A stretch of 13,205 nt of DNA from Myxococcota bacterium (GTDB lineage Bacteria > Myxococcota > XYA12-FULL-58-9 > JABJBS01): NCBI GenBank assembly GCA_036339465.1, contig JAYZAY010000090.1:1-13205 (forward strand), read 5' to 3'. The notes beneath the pieces were generated by a model. It was not told the origin of the DNA, did no database searches, and saw only the letters and a list, made by a program, of their open reading frames with translations. The first letter of the stretch is position 1, and each line of letters begins with the position of its first letter. Positions 839 to 10,152 of the stretch are shown here, one piece after another. The position numbers and the translations under genes were made by a program.

Positions 839-975
839 AATCGGTTGGGGATATTGGTTATGCTGCCATTTTTCCAGGATTTTCCTTGCATTGTGTCTTT
901 CTCGGACTTTGGTATTTTGGTTGTGATATGGGTTTTTGTGGCATATCCATGAAGTGCTCCACGGAGGTTCCATCG

Positions 976-1815
976 ATGAGACACGTCGAATTACTTGTTT
1001 GCGCCGTGTTGTGCTTGGGGGTCGGATGTAGCGAAAAGTTTCAATCTCAGGGGGAGGGGAAAGGTGTGTCGCAGGTTGAGGCTGGAGAAAATATAGGTCA
1101 AGGGGGTGTCGTAGGGTCAGAATCCAAGGATGATGCGAAATTAGATGGCGTGGGGGCCATCAAACCAACCGGATCTTCGGGAGGTGCGCAGGGTTCTACG
1201 CCAGTGGGTGGTTTTGGGGTGATCAGTGGTGCCTGTGGAGTCCTTACGGAAGATTTGCGAAGTCAAGATGAACCTGTCTTGATTCAAAATGCGATTGATT
1301 TTTCAGAGGATCCCTATGATGAAGCGGATTATGACCTCTTAACCGAAGGGGGGCAAGAGATTATCGATGATGGCAATGCAGGGGGAAGTTCTCTCTACTC
1401 CGAGGTCTTTGCCTATGAAATTCTGGCTCGTTGTGATGGGGCCGCTTTGCTTAAAACAGAAACCGAGATCAACTATCAAGATCCGCAGGGGAAGATCACA
1501 GACCTATTGGTGGAGATCCATGGGGAGCGGGTGGGGGTGAGTGTTACTCGGGCCGTGGTTTTCCCCCGTGATGCCCCCTACACGGTGGGCCATGCTCGGG
1601 AACTTCTTGAGAATAAGCTCGGAGGCATCTTGGAAAGCACTGAAAATGTCGCAGAGAAAGACAACTGGAAAAAACAGATCTTGCATATTATCGTCTATGG
1701 GGCAGAGCATGCGGAATCACTTCAGAGTGCTTTTTTGGGGATGGATTCCGAGCTCAAGAGTAACACCATCGTTTATCTGACGGTCTCCGACGGAGAAGAT
1801 GGATTCCTGTATTGA
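976..1815 (+). CDS. Lipoprotein (279 aa) with a Gly/Ser-rich linker and a C-terminal AAC4-like, probable PD-(D/E)xK-fold domain
   Basis: GGAGGT at 963-968 lies 7 nt before ATG 976. Signal peptide with lipobox MRHVELLVCAVLCLGVG-C18. Motifs NAGGSSLYSEV, LLKTETEINY, KITDLL, VGVSVTRA, LLENKLGGI, WKKQILH match my recollection of the Dictyostelium/invertebrate AAC4 family. Confidence 0.8.
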   Translation: MRHVELLVCAVLCLGVGCSEKFQSQGEGKGVSQVEAGENIGQGGVVGSESKDDAKLDGVGAIKPTGSSGGAQGSTPVGGFGVISGACGVLTEDLRSQDEPVLIQNAIDFSEDPYDEADYDLLTEGGQEIIDDGNAGGSSLYSEVFAYEILARCDGAALLKTETEINYQDPQGKITDLLVEIHGERVGVSVTRAVVFPRDAPYTVGHARELLENKLGGILESTENVAEKDNWKKQILHIIVYGAEHAESLQSAFLGMDSELKSNTIVYLTVSDGEDGFLY

Positions 1816-1817
1816 GA

Positions 1818-3416
1818 TTATGTGCGCATGCCCGCTTTTCGGAGCATTTTTATGGTTCCTATGGGTTCGGCAGACAAGACGGAAAGTACGCCGCCCATCA
1901 TGGCGCCAATGACCCCCACGGATGCCACTTCCGATCCCGCCATAAAGAGGTTACGGATCGGACTTTGTGGGCGTAGCCATTGGGTTCGAAATCGTTTAGG
2001 CGTGGGCTCGATGCCATAGATAGAACCCGCCATGGGCCGAACGAAATGGTCGGTGGAAAGAGGGGTCGAGAGCTCAACATACTCTAGATACGGTTCTAAT
2101 TCGGGCATGTTTTTGAGAAATTGTTCAAGAAGCTTTTTCTCCATCCGCTCCTTAAAAGCATCGTAGCTTTCCCCGCGTTTTTTCCAGCGGGTATCTTTCC
2201 ATTCTTGAAAAATATCCCAAGGGACAAAGGTGACGACTTCGCCGGTATGCAATTGTTCTGGGCCGGGGTCATAGTGGGGATCCTTGAGGGAAGGGAAACT
2301 GCAATACAGAACCGGAACATCGGGAAGTTTCTGGTCGGGCGCCACCATCCAATCACTAAAATTTGGGTCCCAGGTGCCATAGAACCATTTGTTGGCGGAC
2401 CCGGCTCCCGCTTGACGGATATCGCCTTTGAATCCTAAATAGAGACAGACATGACAGGGCGCGGGATTGAGGCTTTTGATCTCTTTTGCCCATTTCTTTT
2501 CTCGATGGTTTTCAGGTAGAAGACGGGTGGCCGTGGACATGACACCGGCGGCACTTACGATGGAATTACTGCGGATTTCTTCGCCGTCTCTCAAGCGAAC
2601 GCCCACAGCTTTTCCTTTATGGACGATGATTTCTTCCACATCGGCTCGGATTCGGGTCCAGCCACCACCATCGGCCACGGTTTTTAGGAGGGTATTGGCG
2701 ATTTTTTCAGAGCCACCCACGGGGTAATAGCCACCGTGGACGAAATGACGGACCACCAAGGCTTGCATGGCAAAGGAGGAACGACTTGGAGGTGACCCGT
2801 AGTATCCCCATTGTGCAGTCATGATGCTTTGCAATTTGGGATTATCGGTGAGCCTGTTGATGACTTCTTGGGTTTTTAGCTCCAACATCGCCAGCCCTTT
2901 TTTGCCCAGAGTGGCTTCCCCAAGCCAATTAAGTTTTTGGGGTAGGGCTCGGGCGAGGTAGTAGCCCTTCATGGCGCCGGCCACTTCCCGAACGTAGGCG
3001 AGATAGCGATCGATGGCTTCTTCTTCCTCGGGAAAGGCGTCCAATAGATTTTGACGGAACTGTTTTGGGCTATCGGGAAAATCGATGCGGAAGCCTTCGG
3101 GGTAATAGAATTCATCGTAGACGGGGCCGAGGGAGGCCCATTGTAGATCGCCGCTTGTGAGGTATTCGAGAAGGCGGCCGGTGAGGGAGTGGCGCGTGAC
3201 TTCGCCGACGGCATGGACGCCCACATCCCAATGAAAATTTTTGCGTTTGAAAGTGTGGGTATAGCCGCCGGGAACATAATGCTGCTCAAGTACGAGTACT
3301 TTTTTGCCAAGCTTACTTAGCATCGCCGCAGCGGTCATGCCGCCCATGCCGGAACCGATGACAATATAATCCCAGATGCCGTCTTTCCCCTTTTTGTCCC
3401 AGTATTTCTCCGACAT
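1818..3416 (-). CDS. Phytoene desaturase family / all-trans-retinol 13,14-reductase (RetSat)-like FAD-dependent oxidoreductase, 532 aa
   Basis: Rossmann motif DYIVIGSGMGGMTAA, then VLEQHYVPGGYTHTF, WDVGVHAVG, GGYYPVGGS, STPLS...GSIYG and NLFMAG...GVIGAMMGG. SD-like GGGAG upstream. Substrate cannot be assigned. Confidence 0.9.
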   Translation of the reverse strand: MSEKYWDKKGKDGIWDYIVIGSGMGGMTAAAMLSKLGKKVLVLEQHYVPGGYTHTFKRKNFHWDVGVHAVGEVTRHSLTGRLLEYLTSGDLQWASLGPVYDEFYYPEGFRIDFPDSPKQFRQNLLDAFPEEEEAIDRYLAYVREVAGAMKGYYLARALPQKLNWLGEATLGKKGLAMLELKTQEVINRLTDNPKLQSIMTAQWGYYGSPPSRSSFAMQALVVRHFVHGGYYPVGGSEKIANTLLKTVADGGGWTRIRADVEEIIVHKGKAVGVRLRDGEEIRSNSIVSAAGVMSTATRLLPENHREKKWAKEIKSLNPAPCHVCLYLGFKGDIRQAGAGSANKWFYGTWDPNFSDWMVAPDQKLPDVPVLYCSFPSLKDPHYDPGPEQLHTGEVVTFVPWDIFQEWKDTRWKKRGESYDAFKERMEKKLLEQFLKNMPELEPYLEYVELSTPLSTDHFVRPMAGSIYGIEPTPKRFRTQWLRPQSPIRNLFMAGSEVASVGVIGAMMGGVLSVLSAEPIGTIKMLRKAGMRT

Positions 3417-5288: not shown

Positions 5289-8200
5289 CTATTGCGCTAT
5301 AGCTTCTATAGCTTCTATAGCTTCTATAGCTTCTATAGCTTCTATAGCTTCTATATGCTCTTCCTGTGGTTGGTTGGTAGTGTGTGCGGGCAACCAGATT
5401 GTAAATTCGGCTCCATTAAAATCTGGATCGTTTCGTGTTGTAATGTGGCCATCAGAATCTTCGATGATTTTTTTCACCAGGTAAAGGCCTATTCCCGTTC
5501 CACTATGCAGGCTCTTGGTGGTGAAAAACTCGTCGAAAATTCGTGGTATCACGGCCTCTGGAATGCCCCCGCCGTTGTCTTTGACTTGAATCATGACCCC
5601 CGGCCGCCCTTGGTGGTGCTTTTCTTCGGTTGAAATTTCGACAACGCCAACAAATACTGACTTTGTGAGATCTTCGAGGCTTTGGTAGTGACTGTCCAAT
5701 GCATCCACAGCATTGGCAATGAGGTTCATAAAAACCTGACAAAGCCGCACGGGAACCACTGCCACGGGGACGGCGTTTCCTCGATTGAATATAAGCTTGC
5801 ATAGGGTGAGTTTGGCTTTACAGAGAATCATGACCTCATCGATCAGTGTATTGGGGTCGACCACCTCAAGCGCGTCCTCTTGTTGTCTACTTTGTCGCCG
5901 CAAAGCGTTGGTAATATCGGTAAGCCCTTTGACGGCCGCTAATGCTTGGTCCAACATTTTAAGGATGGTGCTTTGATTGTGGTGGTAGGTTTCGTAGAAA
6001 TTCACTGATTCTGAAGTTTTGGAATGTGCGTAGCTTTCAACGCGTTTAGTCATCTCCATAGTATGTTCTTGCGCCACGGTGATGCAAAGAGCGATCGCCT
6101 GGGCGGGATTGGTTACTTCATGCCCAATGGAGGAGGTGAGCTTACCAAGCTGCACCATCTTGTCGGTATCCATGGCAAATTGCTCGTGGAGTGCACGTTG
6201 TTGTGCGATCGTCTCGCTTAGGAAATCCTTGGTCTGTTGAACCTCTGTAAGGTTTTGAGCAAGTTCAGCAGCGACTCTGGATGCAACTTGTTGGGCTTCG
6301 AGGTGTTGAGAAGGGCGAGAAATCATGACGTAGCCCCACTCAAACTTTTGGGGTTCGGTCATAACCTTGGCCATGGTGAGCCAAAGACACTTTTCTTGGG
6401 AGCCATTGCGGCCAAACATCACATGGACGCCATTGACGGGGCCAAGATTGGTTGTATTAAATAGCCCATATTGAGACACAAGGTCCAGCTCATCTATCCA
6501 TTCGTAGATGGGTTTGCCGATAAGTTGCCCAAGTGGAATTCCCAACTGTTGGGCGAAAGCGCTGTTTCCCCGGATAACGGTTCCATCTTGTTGAAGAATG
6601 ACAAATCCGTCGGGAAGAGAATCGAAGAGTAATTGCAGGAACTGACTTTGTTCCAGCGCATCTCTTTCTCGTGCTTTGAGTAAGAGTAGGTTCCGTATGT
6701 GGGAGACGAGTTCTGGTTCACTATAAGGCTTGGCCACAAAAGCATCGGCGCCCGCTTCTATTGCTTCTAGGCGTGACCCGTCATCTGCTCTGGAACTCAA
6801 AACGACGATCGGTAGCGTGATGGGTCTTTTTTGTTTACGACATATTTGGATAAATTCGGTTCCGGTTATATAGGGCATCAACCAGTCGGTGACCACGAGA
6901 CTGGGTTGTCTTATCTCCATGAATTTGAGGGCTGCGACAGCATTGTTAACGACCAACACCTTATAGCCATAACGTCGGAGAGTACGGGCTATCAGTTGGC
7001 CCATTTCAGGCACATCATCGATCACTAAAATCCACTCATCTATCCATTCTTCTTGGCTTAGCTCTTGTTCAAGTTTAAGGGTGTCTGTGTCGTCATCGCC
7101 GGGTTCATGGTTGCTTGGATGGGTGTTTTTAGTCGATTCTGTAAGCGTCGGTTCCCAATCTAAAAGCCCGTCTGTGTATTTTTCACCGGATTGATAGTTG
7201 AAAGGGCTTGATTGGCACCAAGTACCAATGGCTGCAGAGGTTTTCATCGGGTCAAAGGGTTTTGACAGGAAATGCTGGACATGCGCATCGTTGATTAGGT
7301 CGGGTAATGGGACTTTCTCCGCTTCAGCGGTCATCAGTATGCGAATGGTATCCGGTTGTTTGAGGCGCATATAGGTTAAGAAATCAAGCCCTCTTTCCAC
7401 ACCGAGTAGGTTGTCGGCTAGAACCACTTTGAATCTGGCTTCTTCCAACAAAGCTTTCGCTTTTGCGGTGCCGTCGGCGACTAAAATGCGGAGGTTGTTG
7501 GCTACTAAGGTCTCCTTTAGGAGCATGGCCGTATGGTAGTCATCCTCCAAGATGAGGACGTCATAGAGGGGAAGAAGGGGGGCGGTTAAGGGAAACTCGA
7601 CCCAAAAGACACTCCCTTTTCCTACTTCGCTCTCCACGCCCACTTCACCGTGCATTTCGTTGGCTAGAGCTTTTACTAACGCGAGTCCAAGGCCAGTCCC
7701 GGTTTTTTTCAAGCTCAGGTGTTCAGGTGCTTGGCCATATAATTTGAAGAGGGATTTTTGACCATCTTTAGAAATTCCAGCTCCTGTGTCTCGTATCGAA
7801 ATTGTCGCCCGGCGGCGATTTTGGCTTAATTCTAAGCTGATTTTCCCGTTGGGGGGGGTGAATTTAACCGCATTTGAAAGGTAGTTGAAGATAATCTTTT
7901 CTAGGGCGTCAATTTCTCCGTGGATGAAAATATTTCGGTGGAAGTCCATGTCCAATTGTTGTGTGTTACTCCATGTTTCAAATTGAATCTGTTTTTTGGA
8001 GCATATTTCTTGGTATGATTTCGAAGATGCTTGCAGGAAATCTCCAAGGGAAATCGTGGTGAGTTTCAGTTTGTTTTCATTTGTACTTATTTTTTCGTAG
8101 TCCAAGAGTTGGTTGACCAGTTTCCAAAGTCGACGACTGCTTTGCAGCGGGAGAGTCAGATCCTCGTCTGGGTACTTTTGTTGCAACTCTTCGAGAGGAT

Positions 8201-8714
8201 TGACAATGAGGCTTAGGGGGGCTCGTAATTCGTGGGAGATATTTCGGAAAAAATCGCCCTTTTCTTGTTGGAGGGCCAAAAGTTTTGCAGCCTCTGTCTT
8301 CGCTTTTTGTTGTTGGAGGTTGGCTTCTTCTTGGTAAATTACCTGTTTTTTCAGAGGTTCGAAGTTGGTTAACACCATCACAGCAAAGGTGGGATGTGAC
8401 GGCTCATCGAGTTTTTGATAATGAACGGTGTAGATTTGTGAGGTTTGATCGCCACTTAAAAAAAGCATGTTTATAGGACCAGATGAGACCTCCAAGAGTT
8501 TGGTTCCAAAGGTACGAATGACATCGTTTTCATCGAGAAATGAGAGAAATCCTTTTCGGAGGACGTGATCTTGTTTGTAGCCGAGAATGTCGCAGAAAGC
8601 CTTATTTACAAAAATGATGATGTCGTTTTCATCGATGGCGATAATTGGGTTGGGCACGGTGCCCATGATCTCTTCTAGGGTGAGGCCGGATGGGTTGGGT
8701 GTTGTCGATGTCAT
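5289..8714 (-). CDS. Cytoplasmic hybrid sensor with two kinase cores: PAS-HisKA-HATPase-REC-REC-PAS-HisKA-HATPase, 1141 aa
   Basis: AGGAG (8727-8723) precedes ATG 8714. PAS1 [14 protein letters not shown]. Core 1: [37 protein letters not shown]1: LILEDD/VVLADN/LMTA/LSKPF. REC2: [25 protein letters not shown]2 [17 protein letters not shown]. Core 2: [37 protein letters not shown]. No transmembrane segment is evident. Confidence 0.95.
5297..5355. repeat. Perfect 9-bp tandem repeat (CTATAGCTT) x6 plus 5 nt, encoding (IEA)6 at the kinase C-terminus
   Basis: Units begin at 5297, 5306, 5315, 5324, 5333 and 5342, followed by a partial CTATA at 5351-5355. No mismatches. Confidence 0.97.
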
Positions 8715-8812
8715 GGGTCTAGCTCCTAGGGGAAACCTGACTTCATTAGACCTCCATGGATATGGTTGCATGGATTTTTGTTGGGGGTCAAGATGGTTTT
8801 GTGGGACATATG

Positions 8813-8836
8813 TTATGGGAATCGGCATTCTCATAA
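8813..8836. promoter_or_regulatory. Operator-like inverted repeat in the divergent kinase / HAD intergenic region
   Basis: TTATGGGAAT-CGGC-ATTCTCATAA: 10-bp arms with one mismatch and a 4-bp spacer. Confidence 0.5.
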
Positions 8837-8922
8837 ATTACTTTGCTCTTGGGGAAAAGAAAGCATGGTCGGAACCTACCTATCATGATACGCCCCCCCA
8901 TCTAAAAAGACGGGAACCGTTC

Positions 8923-10152
8923 ATGAACAACAAAGCTGTACGCACACGCACACTGATCGTGCTTTTAATCAGTCTCTTTGGGTGTACCTCCACCTCCACA
9001 TCCAATCCACCGCAAAAATCATCGGTCACCGCCGCGGGGTGGCCCTCTCAAGCCCACCGGCAATTGGAGGCATTCGTCAGTAAGTACCCACGGCCACAGG
9101 GCGGCCACAGCCCCATTGCCATCTTTGATTGGGACAACACCGTCATCAAGAACGATATTGGTCGGGCCACGGTGCATTGGACGATTACCCACGGGCTCGT
9201 GAAGCAACCTCCACAAGGGGACTGGCGAAAAGCCAATCCTTATCTCACCCAAAAGGCTGTCGGGGAACTCACGGAAAGCTGCGGGACACAAACCCCTCCA
9301 GGACAGCCACTCCCCACCCATAAAAACCCAAGATGCGCGCAGGTTTTGAGAACCATCGCCGATAAAGCCACCACCACCGACGGTAATCCCGCCTTTGCCG
9401 GATACAACTACCGAACCTACGCCGCAACCACCGCTTGGCAAACAACGGTTTTGGCCGGGTACACCCCAGCGGAGATCCGCACCATGGCAGCCGAAGTCAT
9501 CGCCGCCAAAATGAAAGTATCCACCCAAGAAAAAGGAAAATATATCCGTCTAAATCAGCCGATTCGCAATCTAATGCGGGATTTGGACCACGCAGGCTTC
9601 GAAGTGTGGGTTGTCTCAGCATCGCCTCAATACGTGGTTGAGGCCTTCGCCGACTCTATTACATTTCCCCGGGAAAGGGTGATTGGCTTGAGAAATCTCC
9701 TCGACCAACAAGGGCGCCAAACTTACGACTTTGAAGGCTGCGGTTCCCACCAAGACGGCGAAAATAGACTCATCAACAAGATTGAGGGTAAACGTTGCTG
9801 GATCAATCAAGTTATTTTTGGGATCCAAGGCAAAGCCGCCGAAGCATCCCAAACACACCTAGACAAACGCGCTGCCTTTGTGGCCGGTGATGCAACCACC
9901 GACGTCTCCATGCTCCGAGACGCCACAGGTCTTCGCCTGGTGATCGATCGCCATGACTCAGAACTCATGTGTTACGCACTCTATGGCGAGGGTCCACCTT
10001 GGGTGATCGTACCCATGTTCTTCGATCCCAAATCCCAAGGGACCGACCCTTATCCATGCAGTACCCGTGGTTGTTTGAATACCGACGGCTCAAAGGGGCC
10101 ATGCCTCGACGATCAAAACAACGTCATTCCCGATCAGCGACCAAGATATTAG
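8923..10152 (+). CDS. Lipoprotein HAD-superfamily phosphatase (phosphorylcholine-phosphatase-like motif set), 409 aa
   Basis: Signal peptide with lipobox MNNKAVRTRTLIVLLISLFG-C21. HAD motif I AIFDWDNT, II WVVSAS, III EGK, IV AGDATTD. Eight further Cys are consistent with periplasmic disulfides. The longer ORF from 8587 overlaps the kinase gene and is unlikely. Confidence 0.88.
   Translation: MNNKAVRTRTLIVLLISLFGCTSTSTSNPPQKSSVTAAGWPSQAHRQLEAFVSKYPRPQGGHSPIAIFDWDNTVIKNDIGRATVHWTITHGLVKQPPQGDWRKANPYLTQKAVGELTESCGTQTPPGQPLPTHKNPRCAQVLRTIADKATTTDGNPAFAGYNYRTYAATTAWQTTVLAGYTPAEIRTMAAEVIAAKMKVSTQEKGKYIRLNQPIRNLMRDLDHAGFEVWVVSASPQYVVEAFADSITFPRERVIGLRNLLDQQGRQTYDFEGCGSHQDGENRLINKIEGKRCWINQVIFGIQGKAAEASQTHLDKRAAFVAGDATTDVSMLRDATGLRLVIDRHDSELMCYALYGEGPPWVIVPMFFDPKSQGTDPYPCSTRGCLNTDGSKGPCLDDQNNVIPDQRPRY

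Follow-up and report, generated by a model that had tools for sequence, protein, structure and literature searches.

The known nucleases of the restriction-enzyme fold, i.e. the PD-(D/E)xK fold, either work in the cytoplasm or are toxins paired with an immunity protein, and XisH, to which we return below, is a small cytoplasmic protein of cyanobacteria without signal peptide, tether or extra N-terminal subdomain. Among the toxins, the Zn-dependent DNases CdiA-CT TA271 and YPIII are described in the review PMC9086364 as having an active site of Glu177, Asp198, Ser209 and Lys211. The genes of the SitA lipoproteins are, according to PMC5562445, organised in sitBAI cassettes with a downstream immunity gene, located in prophage-like Mx-alpha units, polymorphic, present in several copies and found only in species with traAB, while the toxin domain of SitA3 is reported there to be homologous to the CdiA-CT Bp1026b tRNase, which has the same fold. 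The gene analysed here lies at positions 976 to 1815 of a 13,205-nucleotide (nt) stretch of DNA from a Myxococcota bacterium (contig JAYZAY010000090.1 of assembly GCA_036339465.1), which as a whole is referred to as the window. A first-pass annotation, made from the sequence alone, had described its product as a lipid-anchored, exported protein with a eukaryote-associated domain of a nuclease fold. Following our analysis, it seems that a conserved domain of, most probably, the restriction-endonuclease fold is carried outside the cytoplasm on a flexible tether, where it might act on nucleic acid, and that the gene has no neighbouring immunity gene of the kind that accompanies known toxins of this fold.

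Predicted fold of the conserved domain

The conserved part of the protein comprises 199 amino acids (aa) and starts at residue 81 (window position 1216), which makes it larger than the ~ 145 aa (1375-1812) that had been delimited initially; the N-terminal addition holds the near-invariant Cys87 and further conserved positions, and the 199-aa unit has the motifs IDF..DPYD and LT.GGQ. The motifs by which the domain had been recognised (NAGGSS..SE, KTE.E..Y, ITD, GVSVTRA, LL..KL.GI and W.KQILH) are all present and all correspond to conserved columns of the family. The features of the gene are listed below, with strand and helix numbers referring to the structural model of the 199-aa domain and counts out of 383 to domain copies.

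963..967, forward strand: Shine-Dalgarno-like GGAGG, 8 nt before the ATG at 976, read directly from the sequence
976..1815, forward strand: coding sequence of 279 aa plus stop, translated without internal stop; 642 homologues at E ≤ 0.001
976..1029, forward strand: lipoprotein-type signal peptide MRHVELLVCAVLCLGVGC, followed by SEK, with lipobox L-G-V-G-C and Cys18 at 1027-1029, predicted by pattern match
1030..1215, forward strand: tether of low complexity, rich in Gly and Ser (16 and 8, respectively, of the 62 residues 19-80), unconserved in alignments
1216..1812, forward strand: conserved 199-aa domain, residues 81-279, with a predicted restriction-endonuclease-like fold; matches cover query residues 1-199
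1234..1236, forward strand: Cys87, putative disulfide partner of Cys153 (1432-1434), from covariation over 369 copies
1375..1404, forward strand: NAGGSSLYSE, loop and start of helix 1 (model helix 60-74), with S142 and E143 (E in 363/383)
1459..1461, forward strand: E162 (E in 362/383), after strand 1 (KTE; model strand 77-81)
1501..1503, forward strand: D176 of TD (D in 377/383), start of strand 2 (model strand 97-101), putative equivalent of the 'PD' aspartate
1534..1554, forward strand: GVSVTRA, strand 3 (model strand 104-113), with S189 (S in 353/383) at the site of the acid of (D/E)xK, T191 at that of its Lys, and R192 (R in 381/383)
1615..1617, forward strand: K214 (K in 370/383), helix 2 (model helix 124-144)
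1666..1686, forward strand: WKKQILH, entry to strand 4, with W231 (W in 378/383), K233 (K/R in 377/383) and Q234 (Q in 347/383)
1789..1812, forward strand: C-terminal DGEDGFLY, with D275 (D in 380/383) and the terminal Y279 (Y in 372/383)

An AlphaFold2 run on the domain with a 108-sequence alignment gave a model with a mean predicted local distance difference test score (pLDDT) of 96.7 and a predicted template modelling score (pTM) of 0.92. Residues 1-58 of the model form two short strands and three helices, after which the elements follow in the order helix 60-74, strands 77-81, 97-101 and 104-113, helix 124-144, strand 153-160, helix 163-174 and strand 184-192. The top matches of a Foldseek search of this model against the PDB were SfsA (E 4.2e-4), EcoO109I (8.3e-4), HamA, Cdn1, Can2, NucS/EndoMS, MGME1, XisH and a CdiA-CT toxin. 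A VIA-align comparison against 48,161 representative PDB chains resulted in the following matches.

XisH: Z 8.5, 119 residues aligned, root-mean-square deviation 3.1
HamA: Z 7.9, 164-176 residues, whole domain spanned
CdiA-CT toxins: Z 7.9, 7.3, 7.0 and 6.9
AF1548: Z 6.6
NucS: Z 6.5
PaqCI: Z 6.3

Of the 50 entries in the VIA-align list, 33 have titles that identify them as nucleases or as proteins of a nuclease fold, and five more (XisH, AF1548, YaeQ twice, and Zip2-Spo16) have the PD-(D/E)xK fold as well; the remainder consists of seven unrelated entries (acetyl-CoA carboxylase, dynein, Rubisco activase, clamp loader) and five that are unclear. Among predicted viral structures (BFVD), most matches that follow four homologues of the protein (see below) also have the PD-(D/E)xK fold.

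There are points that speak against a firm assignment. The template modelling scores (TM-scores) of Foldseek to PDB entries are only ~ 0.3, and the best Z scores are middling (7-8.5), where according to the VIA-align guidance values of 7-8 are common for models without a true relative, so that the argument for the fold rests on the uniformity of the matches and not on their scores. Furthermore, no sequence profile ties the family to any Pfam nuclease family: searches of the protein against Pfam, NCBIfam, PADLOC and PHROGs returned no family at E ≤ 1, no Pfam family was matched by more than four of 108 diverse members, and the protein and the family profile gave only chance matches to PDB sequences (three for the profile, all at E > 1). 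Taking the model and its matches together, the domain nevertheless most probably has the restriction-endonuclease fold, in line with what had been suspected from its motifs.

Probable export and lipid anchoring

The predicted signal peptide MRHVELLVCAVLCLGVGC has the layout of a lipoprotein signal, in which basic residues at the start precede a hydrophobic stretch and a lipobox-like end at Cys18, and it presumably fits PROSITE rule PS51257. With a relaxed pattern, 319 of 381 family proteins show a lipobox-like motif up to residue 50 (some homologues have the same form, xGVGC or xGIGC), and of the 62 proteins without it 18 look N-terminally truncated, as their domain begins before residue 45. 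The lipid-anchored export that was originally proposed is supported. The residues at positions +2 and +7 after Cys18 are both Ser, which, by the sorting rule for M. xanthus given in PMC5562445, point to the outer membrane. This suggests an outer membrane location, with the proviso that the M. xanthus rule may not hold in this lineage. Both the lipidation of the protein and the membrane face on which it would reside are inferred.

The Gly/Ser-rich tether between the signal peptide and the domain, recognised as such from the start, has counterparts in the family, where linkers have a median length of 69 aa and those of relatives are rich in Asp, Ala and Gly. Within the domain, Cys87 and Cys153 covary: of the 369 domain copies in which both columns are aligned, 354 have both cysteines, 13 have lost both, and only two have lost one, a pattern that would be expected of a disulfide. 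In addition, longer relatives have the domain fused to modules of extracytoplasmic proteins. In 24 of them these are fn3, Big_2, CARDB, Calx-beta, collagen, TSP3, Kelch, Peptidase_C25, Peptidase_S15 and a type IX secretion system (T9SS) sorting tail, and taken over all longer relatives the partners comprise fn3 in five proteins, collagen plus TIG, the MopE motif, Peptidase_S15/CocE-NonD, FGE-sulfatase and PLD as well. Fused relatives of 515-871 aa were found in the search of cluster representatives; a homologue search limited to longer relatives scored none, a blank that is uninformative since the former search shows that fused forms exist. Because the lipoprotein signals, the covariation of the cysteines and the extracytoplasmic fusion partners are three independent lines that lead to the same place, it is highly probable that the domain is exported.

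Putative active site and function

In the model, E143 is located in the first turn of helix 1, D176 just before strand 2, and S189, T191 and R192 in the second half of strand 3. Since strands 97-101 and 104-113 are joined by a two-residue turn, D176 and S189 would be cross-strand neighbours, and the order of the elements suggests that the conserved residues cluster in space. The residues would then be arranged as in the 'D ... (D/E)xK' motif, except that a Ser replaces the acid. In this respect the model agrees with the first-pass annotation, in which a helical E, a TD and an SVTR on the next strand were read as a divergent active site: E143 and D176 take the predicted helix-1 and strand-2 positions, S189 lies on strand 3 opposite D176, and the conserved D176 occupies the place of the 'PD' aspartate at the start of strand 2. 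Serine at the position of the acid has a precedent in Ser209 of CdiA-CT TA271/YPIII; the missing lysine has none.

On this basis we tentatively propose, with odds that we put slightly short of even, that the protein is a tethered extracytoplasmic, metal-dependent nuclease or phosphodiesterase acting on nucleic acid. Export would go via Sec and be followed by lipidation at Cys18, with the lipid probably fixing the protein to the outer membrane, from where the ~ 60-residue flexible tether would carry a compact, disulfide-stabilised 199-aa domain of the PD-(D/E)xK fold. As a metal-dependent phosphodiesterase, this domain would cut nucleic acid outside the cytoplasm, for instance environmental or prey DNA or RNA, or periplasmic DNA. 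An acidic cluster in its active site would be made up of E143 on helix 1, E162 where strand 1 ends and D176 where strand 2 begins. S189 would face D176, and the site would be completed by the cationic R192 or K214 in place of the canonical lysine of strand 3; besides K214 on helix 2, K160 might likewise stand in for this lysine. Folding and disulfide formation would take place only after export, which would explain why no immunity gene is needed. A weak hint towards a nuclease role is given by one fused relative (P0127), which combines the domain with a PLD module whose best NCBIfam matches, well below the cut-offs, are the nuclease NucT and DrmC.

A number of observations are difficult to reconcile with this proposal. 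The (D/E)xK pattern is not found on strand 3, where S189-V-T191 is followed by R192: the canonical lysine is absent, position 191 is variable (T in 69, V in 27 and A in nine of 108 aligned members), and R192 is displaced by one residue from the position of the lysine. Moreover, the E-D-S-R-K signature is incomplete in 35 of 276 domain copies, in which 143 or 189 is frequently a hydrophobic residue, and since non-acidic, non-polar residues replace E143 and S189 in some relatives they may be non-essential. Finally, a shared fold alone does not show function. In favour of the proposed site, the only two relatives with an acid at position 189 are without the helix-1 Glu (Gln and Glu in P0181, Arg and Asp in P0222), a small hint that position 189 and E143 may share a role.

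The main rival is therefore a non-nuclease role on the same fold, i.e. a binding module or else an enzyme for some other extracellular substrate (phosphoesters of envelope polymers or lipids, or nucleotides), with the domain either on a tether or at the C-terminus of surface proteins. We regard this as rather doubtful. The absence of the canonical lysine and the variation of E143 and S189 count in its favour, as does the greater constancy of D176, R192, Y167 (kept in 379 of 383 copies), W231, D275 and the C-terminal Tyr. Judging by strand order, N224, D229, W231, K233 and Q234 form another conserved patch, away from the canonical site. The domain is also nearly always found C-terminal to unrelated surface modules, with the protein ending exactly at the conserved terminal Tyr in 238 of 374 copies, and we know of no demonstrated activity for XisH, the best single structural match. 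On the other hand, ~ 30 near-invariant polar residues across more than 1000 clusters look more like those of an enzyme than of an adaptor, nearly all proteins of this fold act on nucleic acids (by the titles of the structural matches), and the arrangement of E, D and S mirrors that of an active DNase toxin (CdiA-CT TA271/YPIII).

A nuclease that faces the periplasm, and serves as a barrier to foreign DNA or processes DNA for uptake rather than being a feeding enzyme at the surface, would have the same fold and residues as the nuclease proposed above, and lipoproteins with Ser at +2 can indeed face the periplasm from the outer membrane. It is nonetheless improbable, as the T9SS sorting tail and the surface and adhesion modules of relatives point to the cell surface or the medium, and the giant-virus relatives described below have no periplasm.

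Family size and distribution

The family is large. Apart from the 642 homologues at E ≤ 0.001, which come from the 90%-clustered collection, the protein matches 1259 cluster representatives at the 50%-identity level, 196 of them at E ≤ 1e-30. The organism names attached to the matches are all Myxococcota or "Deltaproteobacteria" (nine named in the main search and four in a search with a divergent profile); this profile, made from 17 divergent members, gave 127 matches with organism names from the same two groups only. In a scan with one genome per species, relatives were confirmed in 241 of 300 candidate stretches, of which 80 stretches were kept, mostly from Myxococcota together with a few metagenome-assembled genomes with other labels. 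The carriers among these 80 include Bradymonadia, Nannocystis punicea, N. exedens, N. bainbridge, Kofleriaceae, Sandaracinaceae, Polyangia, Haliangium, Microvenator and Persicimonas, and across distant Myxococcota the domain is 50-65% identical. The genome in which the gene was found (4.17 Mb, 102 contigs) has a single copy. In a sample of the phylum, a match was present in 37 of 301 genomes (one match in 36 of them, two in the other), and these are concentrated by family, with e.g. 9 of 11 genomes in one and 8 of 115 in another. The gene is accessory and patchy, yet strongly conserved where it is present.

Two relatives (P0181 and P0222) have two copies of the domain each, joined by MopE or TSP3 repeats. 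In P0181, the second copy has lost the Asp along with further conserved residues, so that its signature reads N-N-V-R-R and it looks like a degenerate duplicate.

Outside the bacteria, the ESM Atlas places three clusters nearest to the protein (scores 0.98, 0.96 and 0.95; 227, 209 and 207 of the 256 features in common). Their labels are 67-96% Eukaryota, and their commonest phyla are Nucleocytoviricota, Haptophyta and Mollusca. The named clusters of the ESM Atlas gave no usable match. A Foldseek search against predicted viral structures resulted in four proteins of giant viruses.

A0A1X6WEL3: E 1e-17, TM-score (query) 0.85, 28% identity
A0A3G5A1B8 (Harvfovirus): E 8e-14, TM-score (query) 0.74, 29% identity
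A0A3G4ZQI0 (Terrestrivirus): E 3e-12, TM-score (query) 0.70, 27% identity
A0A7D3R268 (Fadolivirus): E 9e-11, TM-score (query) 0.66, 28% identity

These proteins, which are 154-232 aa long and hence of similar length, are true homologues judged by the fold of the whole domain as well as by sequence; they are viral or eukaryote-associated and themselves uncharacterised. Judging from these predicted structures, the family reaches giant viruses of protists, and probably eukaryotes too. The eukaryote association of the first-pass annotation thus holds up in part, with support of an indirect kind, namely Atlas neighbours that are dominated by eukaryotes and giant viruses and the four whole-fold matches. 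The more specific resemblance of the motifs to AAC4 of Dictyostelium and the 'AAC4 protein-like' proteins of invertebrates, which that annotation had put forward, remains a conjecture: the homologue searches, which listed only bacterial names, returned no protein named AAC4, and the clusters of ten atypical relatives carry only metagenome or Myxococcota labels. In the literature no function of AAC4 was found, the name turning up only in a figure legend of a sea cucumber (echinoderm) transcriptome paper, PMC4793329.

Pattern scans of IMG/VR gave no giant-virus relative, their sole match being a 57%-identical copy on one 81-kb contig, which may be a phage or a bacterial fragment. Next to the copy, this contig (L001, 1-8597) encodes a YqaJ-like recombinase, a thymidylate kinase, a DUF4326 protein, an RCC1-repeat protein and a Ser/Thr kinase.

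A far-reaching reading of these relationships is that the protein belongs to the bacterial branch of an unnamed group of secreted, disulfide-latched enzymes of the restriction-endonuclease fold that need no immunity protein and have moved between Myxococcota, giant viruses and eukaryotes (molluscs, haptophytes, and the AAC4-type orphans of Dictyostelium and invertebrates). As a whole, this is speculative and rather unlikely.

Start codon and genomic neighbourhood

The open reading frame (ORF) of the first-pass annotation, from 976 to 1815, is real, given its stop-free translation into 279 aa and the GGAGG at 8 nt from its ATG. The frame is open from 748 and has a second in-frame ATG at 949. 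The public gene call (P0002, 328 aa) places the start at GTG 829, i.e. 49 codons 5' of the signal peptide (829-975), by which the lipoprotein signal would be buried behind 49 residues and hidden from predictors. In alignments, however, the signal peptides of homologues start at the position of M1 of the 976 start, which is why this start is preferred. The choice of start leaves the lipobox unchanged. Among the public runs, those listed as containing the gene are DNA runs labelled as marine or seawater metagenome, with no RNA run among them.

The upstream gene encodes an FHA-domain protein, and the downstream gene (1818-3416, minus strand) an enzyme of the amine-oxidase/flavin adenine dinucleotide (FAD) type, which is convergent and only 2 bp away, as had been remarked before. 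The other genes in the window encode a FadL-like porin, a hybrid histidine kinase, a HAD-like protein, a PCC-domain protein, an alpha/beta hydrolase and CheW; there are no phage or mobile genes in the window. The lack of an immunity ORF, equally remarked before, applies to this locus and also to the family: when every ORF of 80 aa or longer from 82 loci was clustered, no neighbour was common to more than seven loci (shadow frames of the gene itself formed larger clusters), and when stop-to-stop frames of 50 aa or longer from the 1 kb flanking the gene on each side were clustered, the largest cluster of neighbours came from four closely related loci.

The absence of a conserved neighbour or immunity gene in these 82 loci argues against a toxin of the SitA type. 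A lipoprotein toxin that is passed to neighbouring cells by outer membrane exchange, or delivered to prey, had been offered as an option initially and is very unlikely: it would account for a lipoprotein signal combined with a C-terminal nuclease-fold domain (the same layout as in SitA) and for the CdiA-CT toxins, to one of which, Bp1026b, the SitA3 domain is related, being among the best structural matches, but the downstream gene is the convergent FAD/amine-oxidase-type enzyme and not a sitI-like neighbour, the gene is single-copy in its own genome as in 36 of the 37 positive genomes, the domain is strongly conserved across distant Myxococcota, and the N-terminal part is a low-complexity linker without a conserved escort domain.

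Two side observations concern other genes in the window. A perfect 9-bp tandem repeat (CTATAGCTT, 5297-5355; 6.6 copies, 100% matches) is located at the 3' end of the gene for the 1181-aa hybrid histidine kinase (5289-8834, minus strand), where it is translated into an (EAI)n tail that directly precedes the stop. Inside the HAD-like ORF (8587-10152), a lipoprotein-like start (RTLIVLLISLFGCTSTS) occurs ~ 115 codons from the beginning of the frame as listed, and judging from this start the gene is probably shorter than listed and would encode another lipoprotein.

Comparison with known systems

The fold of the domain is already known, the family is unnamed and its active-site pattern is non-canonical, and the lipid-anchored, immunity-free setting of the fold is unusual. 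The family has at least 1259 clusters and is absent from Pfam and NCBIfam; a name for it would provide many hypothetical proteins of Myxococcota, and apparently also of giant viruses and eukaryotes, with an annotation. If the family is truly shared by bacteria, viruses and eukaryotes, the function of the bacterial protein would be the first for a eukaryotic orphan family. Many Myxococcota are predatory, and if the domain is a nuclease, this would bear on their use of extracellular DNA or RNA; it would then be the first housekeeping extracellular nuclease of the restriction-endonuclease fold.

Of the proteins with known structures, XisH (PDB 2okf and 2inb) is the closest by Z score, with 119 of 129 residues aligned over model residues 59-193, but it is only 9% identical. 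HamA of the Hachiman system (PDB 8vxy and 8zue) has the longest aligned span (model residues 1-197 of 199), which includes the N-terminal part. Unlike the protein described here, it is cytoplasmic, works together with the HamB helicase and has a canonical ExK (an entry title names the E138A,K140A mutant); none of the PADLOC models match the protein.

The CdiA-CT toxins that were compared (the Zn-dependent DNases TA271/EC869 o11 and YPIII, and the tRNases Bp1026b and E479) are likewise exported with a nuclease-fold domain, and in TA271/YPIII the helix Glu, strand-2 Asp and strand-3 Ser correspond to E143, D176 and S189. They differ in that they are only ~ 9-11% identical, and the Lys that TA271/YPIII keep two residues after the Ser is missing here. 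In contrast to these toxins, the protein is a stand-alone lipoprotein of 279 aa instead of the tip of a large CdiA, has no CdiI-type immunity neighbour, and has an N-terminal lipid anchor, a conserved cysteine pair and ~ 58 extra N-terminal residues in its domain.

With SitA the protein has in common a lipobox, a C-terminal domain of a nuclease type, the residues for sorting to the outer membrane and a host among the Myxococcota. It has, however, no sitB or sitI neighbours and no mobile-element setting, is encoded by a single copy, and is conserved instead of polymorphic, with an N-terminal region that is not conserved; of the characteristics of SitA that were checked, the gene shares only that of encoding a lipoprotein. 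Compared with the cytoplasmic enzymes and the immunity-paired toxins, a large, strongly conserved family that is exported, lipid-anchored, disulfide-stabilised and immunity-free would represent a different way of using this fold.

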